Below are positions 1 to 6,000 of a stretch of 47,246 nt of DNA, piece by piece. Every line of letters begins with the position of its first letter. Position 1 is the first letter of the stretch. The stretch is from an uncultured Candidatus Saccharibacteria bacterium. Its GTDB lineage: Bacteria; Patescibacteriota; WWE3; UBA101185; UBA10185. Location of the stretch: the NCBI GenBank assembly GCA_964612565.1, contig CAZTDP010000001.1:76336-123581 (forward strand), read 5' to 3'. Position numbers: made by a program.

Positions 1-3000
1 CCGCAACCAAAAATATTCCGCCCGGTTTTAAAAGTTTAATAATTCGTTGCATAGCCTCCATATCATTTTGTATATGCTCTAAAACATCCAGCGCTAAAAT
101 TAAATCGAATTTTTCGGCGTACGAGGACAGATCGAGTTGGTTTATATCGCCGTAAAGCAAATTTTGAAATCCTTTGTTTCTACAGGCGGCTAAGGCTGTT
201 TCGGAAACATCGTTGCCCAATACGGTTCCGTATTTTTGAAGGTCTTGAGTTATCTCTCCTGCGCCGCACCCAATTTCTAAAATATTTAGGTTGGTAGCTT
301 TTGTATACTTTTCGACAAGATATTTTATTAAATGTTTTTTACCAACGTGCCACCAGTAGGTTTTTTCAAATTTTTCCATTTTTTCTATTTCGCGTGCATT
401 CATATATACATTTGTGAATATAACATTAAAGGCAGTGAGCTGACTACCCTGTCGATTGCGCCCCTTTCGCGCAACTGCTCAATATTCTACAATGACTATA
501 TGCAAGCTGCATTTACAAAAATCAAATTGTTTCTAGCGACTCACAAGTATTTTGCACTGGTAATAGAAATTTTAGCATTCGCCCTTTCGTTTTATCTTGT
601 AATAATAGTAAATAAATCTAACTTCAAAGATGCAGACCATTTAACAACTTTGGACATTGACTACGAGTACCAACAGGCAACTCAAATTGGAGCCGGTCAA
701 AATCCATATGCAAAAATATTAGACTACGATCTTTTGACTAACAGAAAGTTTGCGACTCTGCTTCCTCTTTATTATTATTTTCTCTATATTATTGTTTTGG
801 CCGGAAATTTTAGCTGGTACAATTTTGCCCTTATTTACTCAAATGTACTTTGGGCAGCCGAAATGTTTGGTGCGCTGGCAATATATTTTATATTTAGAAG
901 GGAAAACAAAAAGGCGCTGGGGTTTGTGGCCGCCAATTTTTTTATGTTTAATCGCTGGACAATTGCCAATATTTCGGACGGCAAACAAGATGTTATAGCA
1001 ATATTTTTGCTTATGGCATCTATTTACTTGCTAACAAGTAAAAACAAAAATGCAAAGATATGGGCGTTTTTTGTATACGGTTTATCGATGGGGATAAAAC
1101 ATATTGGCGTATTTGTTGCTCCGATATTTTTAATGCCACTAATTAATAGGGAATTTAGCTTTAAAGACTTATTAAAAGGAGCCGCGCTGTTTTTAATTCC
1201 AACCTTTGGCGTCGGAATACCTGTGATAGTAAAAAATCCGTTAGCATTTTTTTACTCGATGCTCTTTTCATTTACCAGGGAGCCTAGCAAACTCGGAGTT
1301 GAGTTTGGCTACCAAAACCTTTTGGTTTTATACAATGTCGGCGTAGAAAAAAATAATATCTTTTACTATCTGCTCCCCCGCCTGCCTCTTGTTGTTTTTA
1401 GCGCCCTCAATCTTGTACTTTTATGGCTAAAAAAAATCCCAACAATGCTTTATTGCTTAACAGGTTTATTTATCTTTATTGCATTTAACCCAATGTTGGC
1501 AACTCAATATTTTACTTGGATAACGCCGGTGCTGTTTTTAGCAGGACTTGAGTTAAAAAAGATTAACAAATAAACGTACCGATTATTCTAAGTTGCAAAA
1601 TTCTATCGAAAATAACATATAGATGTACTCATTGACATTGGTATAAAGTCTGTGGTACAAAAGGCGCAGTAGCACCTTTAAAACCAAATTTAGTTCACAA
1701 AACAAAAGGATTGGAGGGATCCTGTGGACGGTTTAGGGAGCTGATTCGATAAAACTGAAATCAAAATCTCACGGAGGGAATAATGAAACACTCGAAAGTT
1801 TTAATCGTTGCTGTACTGGCTCTATTCGTTGTGATGACAGCCGTAGGTGCGTATGCATACTTTAGCGACACCGAAACTGCGGCAGACAATTCTTTCGCGG
1901 CTGGAACTCTCGATCTCAAAACAGGCAACACGGATGGTGTGAGCCAGTCCTATACGGTCACGAATCTTAAACCCACAGATTGGGCATTGGCCGGGCAAAT
2001 TAACCTGAAAAACGACGGCACAATCCCCGGGAATCTGTGGCTGGAAATCAAAAACGTAAAAAACCTCGAAAACAACTGCATTGAGCCGGAACAAGAAGCT
2101 GGCGACGCGACCTGCGACGAATTTGGCGGCGAGCTGGGAAACTTTATTAGGCCCTCATTCCAGATGAATGCTGATCCCTGGACCCGTTATGGTGGCTCTT
2201 TGACGCTCAACGCCAGCGAAGGTATTCGCGTCGATATTAAAACCCTGCAGCCCGGCGAAGTGTTACCGATGACTCTATGGGCAACTTGGCACGACTCCAG
2301 TCCCTTGGATAACCTCGCTCAAGGCGACGGGGCGACGTTTGACGTTGTATTCCATCTCGATCAAAACTAACTAACTAAATAGTTATGTTAATGGGGGCAA
2401 ATCTTGCAATAAGCCAGGTTTGCCCCATTTTTTAAGGCGGAAATATGATAAACAACAGACGAGAAAAGACCCGAACCGGATCCAAAACTGCGAGTAATAT
2501 TGTTTTCGCGTGCATCGTTTTAATTTTAGTTACAGTAATAATGTCAAATTACGGATATGGCCCTTTCAAGTTTATTGTGATAAAGAGTGGCTCTATGGCT
2601 CCGACAATTCGAGTAGGCGACCTGGCCGTCGTTTATAAAGGCGATAAAACCCCGAGTATTGGGGATATTGTTCTTTTTAAAAAGGAGGGCATAGATATTA
2701 TTCATAGAATTGTCAGTATTGAACAACATACCTACAGGACAAAAGGTGACGCTAACAACGCAGTCGATGCATGGCATGTTAACCAAATAGAGGGTGTTTA
2801 TATCGCAAGAGTCCCGCTACTTGGATACATATTATCCTTTATGCAACGAGGGTTCATGATCATATTCGGAGGTACGCAATGACACTTAAAAAAGCCGCAA
2901 CAATATTTTTAGTCGTAGTTTTGGTGCTGACGCTTGGAGGGGCATATGCACTGCTATCGGACACCGAAACTATAAGATTTAGTGGCCAAGGTGCAACGCT

Positions 3001-6000
3001 TATTCTTGAGATCGGTGGTTCTACGAGCACAAAAAGTAGTGACCAAGTATCCTTTGACTTTGGAAACAATATCGTACCCGGTGATGAAGGCACAAAAACA
3101 ATCCATATTGTTAATGGCGGAAGCGTTTCCGGTGTTGTTTGTTACGAGGTAATTAAAATGCCACCCGAGTACTTAAGTGTGCAAGTCGATAGCGCACTTT
3201 GTGGCACAGTGCTCGCTCCGCAAGAGGCAAAGGATTTCAACTTGTATTGGCACATTCCTGCCGATACAAATCTGGGGTCGGGCGGGCAAAGTTTCGATTT
3301 CCAGTTAAGTATTGTTTTTACCCAGCAACAGTAGGTATAAAAATGAGAAAATTAACTGCGAGGCCCGTTTTATTACTTATCACCATCGTGTTTGTGGCAG
3401 CAACCACTGCATCCGGTTATGGACTGCTTAACGATCGTAGAATCTTGAGCTTTTCCGGAAAAATAGCAGTATTTACTACTACTAACACAACAGAACCGAC
3501 TCAAACTGCAACTGAGACATCTACCGAAAACGCCCCCAGAATTTTACCAACCACTACCCTTCAGAACAGTGCTACAACTGTTCCTGCAGAGGCGACGTCT
3601 ACGTACACGGAAACTAGTACATACACTCTCAGCGCAACCTTGGTTGCAGAATCCCCGACAGCGGAGCCGCCAACACCTAGCCCCACACCTGGTGACACAC
3701 AAGAAGGCACGGTTGAGCCCACTGTCGAGCCGCCCCCAACCGAAACGCAAGCACCAGCAGAACCCGAGCCAACGCAAGAGTCCACACCAACTGCGCCACC
3801 AATTTAGGTCGAAATGAAAGATAGATCTAACAGGCGAGCCAAAAGGCGGAATATTCCAAATGGAAAATTCCGCCTCTTTTTTGCCTAAAAACAAATCTTC
3901 GTTTGTACACTATTAATCGTTTAAATGTCTAAGACCGTAGCCACCGTAGGCAAACATCAGCGCGCCGGTAATATTAGCGGCAAATGTTGTCCAGAGATAT
4001 CTGATAATGTTCACGCGATACATTCCTGCTAAAACGCTTACGAGCTTACTTCCATAACCGGGTATAAAACGGCCTAAAAACAAGAAGGCCACACTATCGA
4101 CATCAAACTCTTTTTTAGTAAAAGGAATCTTTACCGAGCGACCTTTTGTATCGGCCGCCACTCCAATTTTCATCCCAACAAAGTACTCTATCAACGCGGC
4201 AAACGTGTTACCGGTGCAAGCTATGAGTGTGCCGTAGAATGGGCCAAAAATTGCACCGTTAATTATCGTCAGAGAGTCGGTTGGAACAGGTGTGACGCTA
4301 AAAAGCCCATACAAAAGTACGGAAATGATAGGGGCTAAAAGTCCTGAGGAACGTAAAAGTGTTTCTACGTCAGAAAAATATTTTAAAACGTAAACAACAA
4401 CCACGCCCGAAGCTATTAACGCTACGATTGTCCAAAATGCTGAATTCTTTTTATGTGTACCTAGAAGACCTTTTCTTTTCGTACTCAAAATGTCAGTCTT
4501 TTCCACAAATTTTATTATACCGTAAGGTATAACCAATTGAAAAGAAATCGCGGCCGGTAGGCCGCGATTTCGCGTTTTCTTTATTAAAGGTAGTCTCGTA
4601 AACGTTTGCTCCTCGATGGATGGCGAAGCTTTCGCAAAGCCTTGGCCTCAATTTGTCTAATTCGTTCTCGTGTAACACCAAACTCTTTTCCAACTTCTTC
4701 AAGTGTGCGGGTTCGACCGTCTTTTAAACCAAATCTTAATTCGAGCACTTTCCTTTCGCGCGGATTCAACGACTGCAAAACCTCATCAATGTGGCCCTTT
4801 AAAAGTTCGCGGCTTGCGGCTTCAAATGGAGACAACGTTGTTTCGTCCTCAATAAATTCTTTAAGTCTTGTATCCTCCTCTTTTCCCACCGGCGTTTCCA
4901 AAGAAGTAACATCCTGCGCGATTTTTACAATTTCGTGTGCTTTTTCTACCTCGATGCCCATTACCTTTGCAACTTCTTCCGGGGTTGGAATTCTTTCAAA
5001 CTTTTGCTCCAAATCCCTTTCGACTTTTTTGTATTTGTTAATGGTCTCAACCATGTGAACCGGAATACGAATTGTTTTTGCCTGATCTGCAATGGCTCGT
5101 GTTATGGCTTGGCGAATCCACCAAGTTGCATAGGTTGAAAACTTAAAGCCTCGTCTCCAATCAAACTTATCAACAGCGCGCATAAGTCCGATGTTTCCTT
5201 CTTCAATAAGATCCAAAAACTGCAAACCTCGTCCCATGTATTTTTTGGCTATAGAAACAACCAAACGCAAATTTGCGCGAATCAAAACTTCTTGAGCGTG
5301 GTGACCTTCTTTTTCGGTAACTTTTTTACCAAAAGTCTCCACTTCTTTGCCTTGTTTTTCGGTCAATCCCATTTCTGTGGATACTTGCTTAACGGTAGGT
5401 TTTTTAATACCGGATTCTTGAAGTTCCTTAATCATGTGTCTAAACCTTAAAGCCTCAGCCTTTTTAGCCAAGTCCACTTCTTCGACAGCCGTTAAAAGAT
5501 TGTAATTTCCTATTTCTCTAAGGTACATTCTTACAGGATCACTGCTTACTGTTTTGTCCAATTTAATTTGGGTAAGATCAATGTCTTCCATTTTGCTAAT
5601 CTTTTCGGCTTCTTTTTCTGAGGCAACATCAAACACGTCAACACCTGCGTCTACTAATTTCTCGTAAAGGGAATCTAATACTTCGAGGTTGTCCTCTGCC
5701 TGAGGAAATAATTCCATAATGTTATCAAGAGTTAAGTAACCTTGTTTTTTACCGCGGGTAACTAGTTTTGCAATTACTGCGTCTGTTAAACCGCCTTTTT
5801 CATTTTTTTCAATTTTGATTTTTGGTTTTCTTGGCATATGTTGTTTTTCTTGACGAGAAAACGATCCTCGCCGATTACGGCTACGGGATGTTTTTCATCA
5901 AAGAAACACCCTAGAAGAAGACTAAAAATAGTTTCTTTGCTTCTTCTTTTTAATTCCTCAACTTAAACATACAATAAATACATTTTAAGCGACAGTACGC

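Follow-up and report, generated by a model that had tools for sequence, protein, structure and literature searches.

A compact cassette of a SipW-type signal peptidase and TasA-like secreted proteins, a candidate fibre assembly operon, in a bacterium of the candidate phyla radiation

We describe a four-gene operon in a stretch of 47,246 nucleotides (nt) from an uncultured Candidatus Saccharibacteria bacterium (GTDB lineage Patescibacteriota, WWE3; assembly GCA_964612565.1, contig CAZTDP010000001.1, positions 76,336 to 123,581 of the forward strand; the whole stretch is referred to below as the window). Its genes, here called A to D, code for a TasA-like secreted protein (A), a SipW-type signal peptidase (B) and two short, divergent secreted proteins (C and D). 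By analogy with characterised systems, we consider it probable that these four genes form a self-contained set devoted to secreting and assembling an extracellular TasA-superfamily fibre. The host assembly amounts to 867 kb in 28 contigs and is 95.7% complete, its size being typical of the candidate phyla radiation (CPR). The four genes are co-directional and occupy positions 1783-3807 of the window, where the original prediction had placed them; its coordinates and the ATGA overlap at one junction (2879-2882) were both reproduced:

1783-2370, forward strand: gene A, 195 amino acids (aa), predicted major TasA-like (PF12389) secreted subunit
2445-2882, forward strand: gene B, 145 aa, SipW-type signal peptidase I (archaeal/endoplasmic reticulum (ER)-type, Ser-His) with one N-terminal transmembrane segment
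2879-3334, forward strand: gene C, 151 aa (mature form ~127 aa), predicted minimal, divergent TasA-like beta-sandwich
3343-3807, forward strand: gene D, 154 aa, SipW-type signal, short strand-like N-terminus and Thr/Pro/Glu-rich tail

A is a genuine TasA/PF12389 protein with both the TasA fold and the signature of the family. It matches PF12389 with 55.8 bits (E 7e-15; gathering cut-off 22.5) and the SipW-type signal peptide model TIGR04088 with 30.2 bits (cut-off 19), the signal peptide comprising residues 1-25 with predicted cleavage between AYA and YFSD. There are 227 detectable homologues, nearly all of about 200 aa, and A is a typical member of this ~200-aa PF12389 subfamily (32-55% identity). 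An alignment of 50 sequences reveals a mature N-terminus of the form (A)YFSDTETS.GNTFTAGTLDLK, in which F27 and D29, at positions 2 and 4 of the mature protein, are invariant, a shared GTLDL strand motif and a conserved C-terminus, DNLAQGD..FD..F.L.Q. The family further conserves an acidic loop with two cysteines, N.EN.C.EPE..AGD.TC (residues 93-112 of A), which is absent from C and might provide a disulphide bond or a site for Ca2+.

Profile and structural comparisons point in the same direction. The A-family profile matches the crystal structure of TasA (5OF1; E 3.6e-6) and its fibre structure (8AUR), along with a weak match to AbpX (9SJ2; E 0.03). The AlphaFold2 model of A has a predicted local distance difference test (pLDDT) score of 87.7, and a Foldseek search with it returned TasA (5OF2) as the top PDB match (E 5e-4) at a modest template modelling (TM) score of 0.48, followed by AbpA (7UEG) at rank 4 and the cannula protein CanA lower down. 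Hence, the TasA/camelysin-like protein of the original prediction corresponds to A by family model, signal model, profile and fold. In the model, the stretch linking the signal helix to the first strand is devoid of secondary structure, and the blocks covering residues 21-40 are those of lowest confidence (mean pLDDT 58-66); such a poorly ordered segment in a monomer model is as expected for a donor strand that acquires order only within a polymer.

Two other identities for A were set aside. Homologues of A carry the Joint Genome Institute (JGI) product name 'RiPP with SipW-like signal', i.e. a ribosomally synthesised and post-translationally modified peptide, which we rejected as these proteins are folded and of ~170 aa. 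The Pfam name of the family, Peptidase_M73 or camelysin, raises the alternative that A is a camelysin-type secreted metalloprotease (MEROPS M73) and the cassette a protease export unit; this we reject as extremely improbable, given that the sequence has neither HExxH nor any other zinc motif and that the solved structures of the family are jelly-roll fibre subunits. No characterised member of the ~200-aa subfamily marked by AYFSDTETS.GNTFTAGTLDLK was found in the literature.

The second component, B, belongs to the Ser-His class of signal peptidases (S26B), as had been predicted, and is not a LepB enzyme. It scores 74.2 bits against the archaeal-type model TIGR02228 (sigpep_I_arch; cut-off 51.85) versus 37.9 against the bacterial LepB model TIGR02227, under the cut-off of 47. 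The predicted SGSMAPT, HRIV and KGDAN boxes are all present, the protein reading SGSMAPT, IIHRIV and KGDANNAVD at these positions. Its nearest solved relatives are SEC11A/SEC11C (E 2.5e-6): SGSMAP, IIHRIV and KGDAN of B align to SGSMEP, VHRV and KGDNN of SEC11A, and the SGSM/HR/KGD boxes are conserved in 10 aligned CPR proteins of the SipW type. By comparison, the two ordinary LepB enzymes of the same genome (C5:61588-62070 and C2:21766-22257, both outside the window) carry a Lys box, KRVIG/KRIIG. Since the genome already has these two, B appears to be an extra, specialised peptidase. Against the Bacillus SipW equivalog NF046067 it reaches 58.6 bits, under the cut-off of 190; accordingly, it is by sequence of the same class as Bacillus SipW and not its orthologue. 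The end of B, GFMIIFGGTQ, stops seven residues into the C-terminal transmembrane helix of nine aligned CPR relatives, with the catalytic boxes and the N-terminal anchor kept; its stop codon overlaps the start of C.

A link between peptidase and secreted proteins emerges from the distribution of the signal type. A regular expression written from the cassette's own sequences, when run over all open reading frames (ORFs) of the 867-kb genome, matched five real proteins and, in addition, one spurious internal site. All five real proteins adjoin SipW-type peptidases, which makes a chance origin of the signal pattern untenable, and three of the five are A, C and D of this cassette. Matching signal peptides had been claimed for all three neighbours of B: the three quoted N-termini were found letter for letter, and the motif, fitted by eye and by regular expression, is confined in this genome to SipW cassettes. 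A search of the genome with the A-family profile likewise retrieved five ORFs, all of them in three SipW cassettes, namely the one under consideration and one each on contigs C4 and C2.

The pairing of A and B extends far beyond this genome. We surveyed 80 loci with genes for A-family proteins (L026-L105), all in named genomes, with a neighbour radius of 5 kb, and found a SipW-type peptidase in 69 of them, usually as the next gene, and more than one TasA-like protein in 63. These loci derive from many CPR groups, Dehalococcoidia, Clostridia, Methanosarcina and Methanomassiliicoccales, and further from Bathyarchaeia, Thermoplasmata, Nanoarchaeia and a haloarchaeon. Across CPR, Dehalococcoidia, Clostridia and many archaeal orders the A-type proteins of these loci share 26-44% identity with A, a spread that would fit with the entire cassette having been transferred horizontally on a large scale. 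The unit of TasA-like protein and SipW-type peptidase is also present on the contigs of the closest homologues; its conservation as a unit is thus borne out by both samples. Peptidases of the SipW type that pass the cut-off were present in 19 of 41 close relatives, and an even sampling of the phylum Patescibacteria gave them in 30 of 151 genomes (~20%).

The lineage had also been described as one where such a cassette is not characterised. This stands as far as experiment is concerned and fails as far as occurrence is concerned: PF12389 proteins in Patescibacteria were already recorded in a GTDB survey (Wang et al. 2022, PMC9245690), the peptidase is found in about a fifth of the sampled genomes, and homologues of A are already auto-annotated with SipW-like signals. 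The cassette is hence real but fairly ordinary, with its type, phyletic spread and presence in Patescibacteria all documented. What is unusual here is the accessory pair C/D, the adjacency of a GT-C-like gene (described below), and the concentration of three cassettes and five S26 signal peptidases (three of the SipW type and two LepB) in 0.87 Mb.

The genes are organised as a tight unit preceded by a GGAGGG Shine-Dalgarno sequence 5' of A. A gap of 74 nt lies between A and B, a 4-nt overlap (ATGA) joins B to C, and D begins after a spacer of 8 nt behind C. The start of D is taken as ATG 3343, where the signal peptide begins; the mechanically called ORF opens upstream at TTG 3199. Two hairpins punctuate the transcript:

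2394-2433, forward strand: hairpin and U-run between A and B, a candidate partial terminator
3844-3883, forward strand: predicted intrinsic terminator after D, closing the operon

The gap between A and B (2371-2444) folds with a minimum free energy (MFE) of -23.1 kcal/mol (z -2.9 against shuffled sequences) and is followed by AUUUUUU, while the segment after D (3808-3895) reaches -27.5 kcal/mol (z -4.8; a stability equalled by 0 of 200 shuffles) and is likewise followed by a U-run. Both hairpins were recovered by folding, having been missed by a consensus terminator scan because it allows only loops of 3-8 nt.

The first accessory protein, C, has no homologue besides itself in a word-indexed search of 5.8 billion proteins. 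Its scores fall below the cut-offs of both PF12389 (17.7 bits against 22.5) and TIGR04088 (14.5 against 19). A comparison of C with the A-family profile by hhalign nevertheless gives 96.8% probability (E 2.7e-10) over residues 1-94, and the mature portion alone yields weak matches to A-family members. Cleavage is predicted between AYA and LLSD, and the C-terminus, LAPQEAKDFNLYW...GGQSFDFQLSIVFTQQQ, parallels the C-terminal strands of the A family by eye. The AlphaFold2 model (pLDDT 78.8) is a compact nine-strand beta-sandwich with residues 25-36 disordered; it was built on an alignment with the A family, with a possible bias toward that family, as neither for C nor for D could an alignment of its own be built. 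A Foldseek search with this model retrieved generic Ig/PapD/MSP-like sandwiches (TM ~0.45) and not TasA. The prediction of C as a divergent TasA-like protein is therefore upheld by the profile comparison only, and not by the fold search. C looks like a TasA-like sandwich minus the central loop region.

The second accessory protein, D, had been grouped with C as another TasA-like protein, which could not be sustained: it is an orphan and not TasA-like, with nothing but a low-complexity tail behind its signal and its short, strand-like N-terminus. There is no Pfam or NCBIfam match, TIGR04088 included; hhalign against the A family gives nothing (probability 1.8%), and an exhaustive phmmer search with D returned one low-complexity match only. 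Its sequence contains no Cys, membrane anchor, sortase motif or folded domain. Cleavage is predicted between GYG and LLND, and the mature protein opens with a strand-like piece of ~17 aa, LLNDRRILSFSGKIAVF, which shares 7 of 17 positions, including the Asp at position 4, with LLSDTETIRFSGQGATL of C. The tail, foreseen as a Thr/Pro/Glu-rich region of ~110 aa, measures 109 aa, with 32 T, 20 P and 14 E (60% T/P/E). A comparable make-up was not seen among 124 SipW-signal proteins of ~95 other loci, where the T/P/E fraction is at most 0.31. Neither C nor D matches TapA (TIGR04087/YqxM) in NCBIfam or Pfam, and any likeness of the two to TapA is functional only.

These components can be arranged into a mechanism on the precedent of better-known systems (PMC9674648, PMC10151520, PMC12337348, bioRxiv 10.64898/2026.01.04.697558). 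In Bacillus subtilis, residues 28-38 of TasA act as a donor strand by which the sheet of the following subunit is completed, and the similar N-terminus of TapA gives the first strand, most of TapA being dispensable (PMC9674648, PMC10151520). In the proposed scheme, B would strip A, C and D of their signals on exit from Sec, with predicted cleavage after AYA, AYA and GYG, so that the mature proteins would begin with YFSDTET (A), LLSDTET (C) and LLNDRRI (D). The major subunit, A, would then polymerise head-to-tail by inserting its N-terminal strand into the next subunit, as in TasA, AbpA, AbpX and Tafi. C might serve as a minimal subunit in a minor, tip or adaptor role, and D, with its donor-strand-like N-terminus and mucin-like tail, as a nucleator or a wall-spanning tether, in the manner of the N-terminal portion of TapA, which is essential there. 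The hairpin and U-run after A may keep A in excess of B, C and D.

Several observations weigh against this interpretation. B is without the C-terminal transmembrane helix of its relatives; the model of C retrieves generic sandwiches in place of TasA; and both C and D carry Leu at mature position 2, where the family has an aromatic residue. D is without homologues, fold or anchor, the role assigned to it being a guess, and it may be a decaying fragment.

One alternative, which we regard as somewhat unlikely, holds that the products, once secreted and processed by the SipW-type peptidase, stay unpolymerised at the surface or in the matrix, as monomeric adhesins or proteins of the envelope, with C and D as unrelated secreted cargo sharing the peptidase. 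The direct observations indeed cover the signal type and the peptidase link alone, the folds retrieved by C are of a generic Ig-like, adhesin type, and D resembles a mucin-like secreted protein. Against this, A retains the invariant N-terminal strand motif in addition to the TasA fold, and all solved structures of the TasA superfamily that we found in the literature form donor-strand fibres (PMC9674648, PMC9245690, PMC12337348).

Another alternative arises from the architecture of related loci. The gene that follows sipW in many CPR cassettes codes for a 500-800-aa protein, TasA-like at its N-terminus and ending in an acidic, T/P/E-rich tail; taken as a pair, C and D resemble the two termini of this protein. 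D, and perhaps C, might thus be decaying leftovers of such a large TasA-like protein, leaving only A and B functional, and the orphan status of both together with the absence of a D-like architecture among the 124 SipW-signal proteins elsewhere would agree with this. We nonetheless deem such decay unlikely, as C and D are intact frames with signal peptides that have a proper -3/-1 site, are tightly coupled to their neighbours by a 4-nt overlap and an 8-nt gap, and, in the case of C, model as a compact, confident sandwich. The fibre assembly set remains, in our assessment, the probable function of the four genes.

The surroundings of the cassette include a membrane protein upstream and another downstream, and the genome contains two further SipW cassettes outside the window:

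497-1573, forward strand: GT-C-like polytopic membrane protein, 358 aa from ATG 497, of doubtful cassette membership
3913-4536, convergent to the cassette: DedA/VTT membrane protein, the next gene after D
G000:C4:56477-60766, outside the window: second cassette, comprising the first three of the following genes, with the fourth beside it
C4, 60164-60766, minus strand: TasA-like protein of 200 aa
C4, 58492-60114: SipW-type peptidase fused to a ~350-aa extracellular domain with an acidic tail, 540 aa
C4, 57557-58489: 310-aa protein bearing a signal peptide, a domain of weak TasA likeness and, at the C-terminus, a membrane anchor
C4, 56477-57544: GT-C-like paralogue, 355 aa, convergent beside the cassette
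G000:C2:36153-37352, outside the window: third cassette, with a TasA-like protein of 199 aa followed by a SipW-type peptidase (partly masked by N)

The upstream GT-C-like gene and a methyltransferase had been offered as context of the cassette; neither belongs to the conserved unit. The methyltransferase is a generic class I S-adenosylmethionine (SAM) enzyme, divergently transcribed, with Suf/iron-sulphur (Fe-S) genes beyond it, and was treated as unrelated. The protein at 497-1573 has no Pfam match at E <= 1; among 17 members of its family, eight match GT87, six PMT_2 and three PIG-M, with a best E of ~1e-5, so that the label 'GT-C-like' is reasonable for it. Its start is more likely at ATG 497, because homologues align from the Met at this position; the mechanically called ORF of 413 aa (start 332) would overlap the 5' end of the divergent methyltransferase, which extends up to 403.

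A third alternative enlarges the cassette by this gene, whose product would carry out polyprenyl-phosphate-sugar-dependent O-glycosylation of the fibre or of the D tail on the external side of the membrane. Both close paralogues of the family in the genome (on C1 and C4, the C4 copy being 42% identical to that of the window) directly adjoin SipW cassettes, a distant third one lying on C8; treated as two independent events under random placement, both adjacencies have a rough chance probability of ~1e-4 or less. The family matches to PMT_2 and GT87 are also in line with such an activity. T/P-rich tails are typical targets of O-mannosylation, and the tail of D is T/P-rich. The two adjacencies are, however, oriented differently, the window protein has no significant Pfam match, the family is found in 0 of the 80 TasA/SipW loci, and its homologue loci in ten relatives have no SipW or TasA neighbour, although in some fragmented relatives both gene types lie near contig ends and may yet adjoin. 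Hence, the GT-C-like protein was rejected as a conserved part of the cassette and kept as a lineage-specific possibility, and its inclusion is in our view doubtful. More speculative still is a combined scheme, which we rate as quite improbable, whereby D acts as a 'minimal TapA' whose strand nucleates or caps the A fibre while the GT-C-like enzyme O-glycosylates its stalk, tethering the fibre in the envelope. If true, the locus would represent a pared-down fibre system, coupled to glycosylation and particular to this lineage of CPR, and the three SipW cassettes and five S26 peptidases of the 0.87-Mb genome would possibly serve attachment to a host cell.

Separately, the GT-C-like gene often occurs with a protein of ~150-180 aa bearing an N-terminal membrane anchor (L110, L112, L115 and G000:C4:56019-56480), and in one relative (L113, 137-2032) its neighbour is a protein of 631 aa in which T/P/S/E make up 88% of the richest 50-aa segment. 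These small anchored proteins or the 631-aa protein may be real partners or substrates of the enzyme. An RpoD-type sigma factor is also encoded in the window (4584-5837, minus strand); over ~240 conserved residues at its C-terminus, identity is 81% to a WWE3 (Katanobacteria) genome and 60-72% to nine other named CPR genomes, which makes a WWE3-like lineage probable.

The wider interest of the locus lies in the emergence of TasA-superfamily fibres as a type of matrix or pilus common to bacteria and archaea. CPR bacteria need contact with other cells, and their surface appendages besides type IV pili have been little studied. With one subunit, one peptidase and two tiny accessories, the locus presents a compact case for donor-strand assembly in CPR, and D could reveal how little suffices for a TapA-like nucleator. 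Without confirmation of what C, D or the GT-C-like enzyme do, the gain is incremental.

Among characterised systems, a close counterpart is the tapA-sipW-tasA operon of B. subtilis, with which the cassette shares a dedicated ER-type Ser-His peptidase beside a major subunit of the TasA fold, the TIGR04088 signal type, the GTLDL strand motif and, if D is read as proposed, an accessory protein that imitates the donor strand at its N-terminus (PMC9674648, PMC10151520). Unlike in that operon, the tasA-like gene here comes first and is followed by a terminator-like hairpin, and in place of a TapA homologue there are a 127-aa mini-sandwich (C) and a protein with a strand and a mucin-like tail (D). 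Mature A, at ~170 aa, is smaller than B. subtilis TasA (234 aa), B is without the C-terminal transmembrane helix, and the Bacillus equivalog cut-offs are failed by both A (28 bits against 450 for NF046066) and B (59 against 190 for NF046067).

The haloarchaeal Tafi loci are comparable in that they combine several TasA-superfamily subunits with their own signal peptidase I and variable minor, tip or anchor proteins: TafD is the signal peptidase, TafA and TafE are the pilins, TafC the tip and TafF the anchor (PMC12337348). They differ in that the Tafi pilins are mostly exported by Tat, whereas the signals here are of the Sec type, and in that a membrane-anchor subunit and a regulator as found in Tafi loci were not seen in this cassette. 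The archaeal bundling fibres of AbpX and AbpA have in common with A a small jelly-roll subunit and, in the case of AbpX, an aromatic residue at mature position 2 and an acidic one at position 4, in the segment that forms the donor strand of AbpX; the sequence similarity is, however, marginal, and the AbpX-associated peptidase has ten transmembrane helices. Also close are the other loci of the ~200-aa PF12389 subfamily in CPR, Chloroflexota, Clostridia and methanogens/Thermoplasmata, with whose proteins A shares the loop and the C-terminus and in which a SipW-type gene is usually next; what sets the present locus apart from them is its accessory pair, C and D, which is unique to it.

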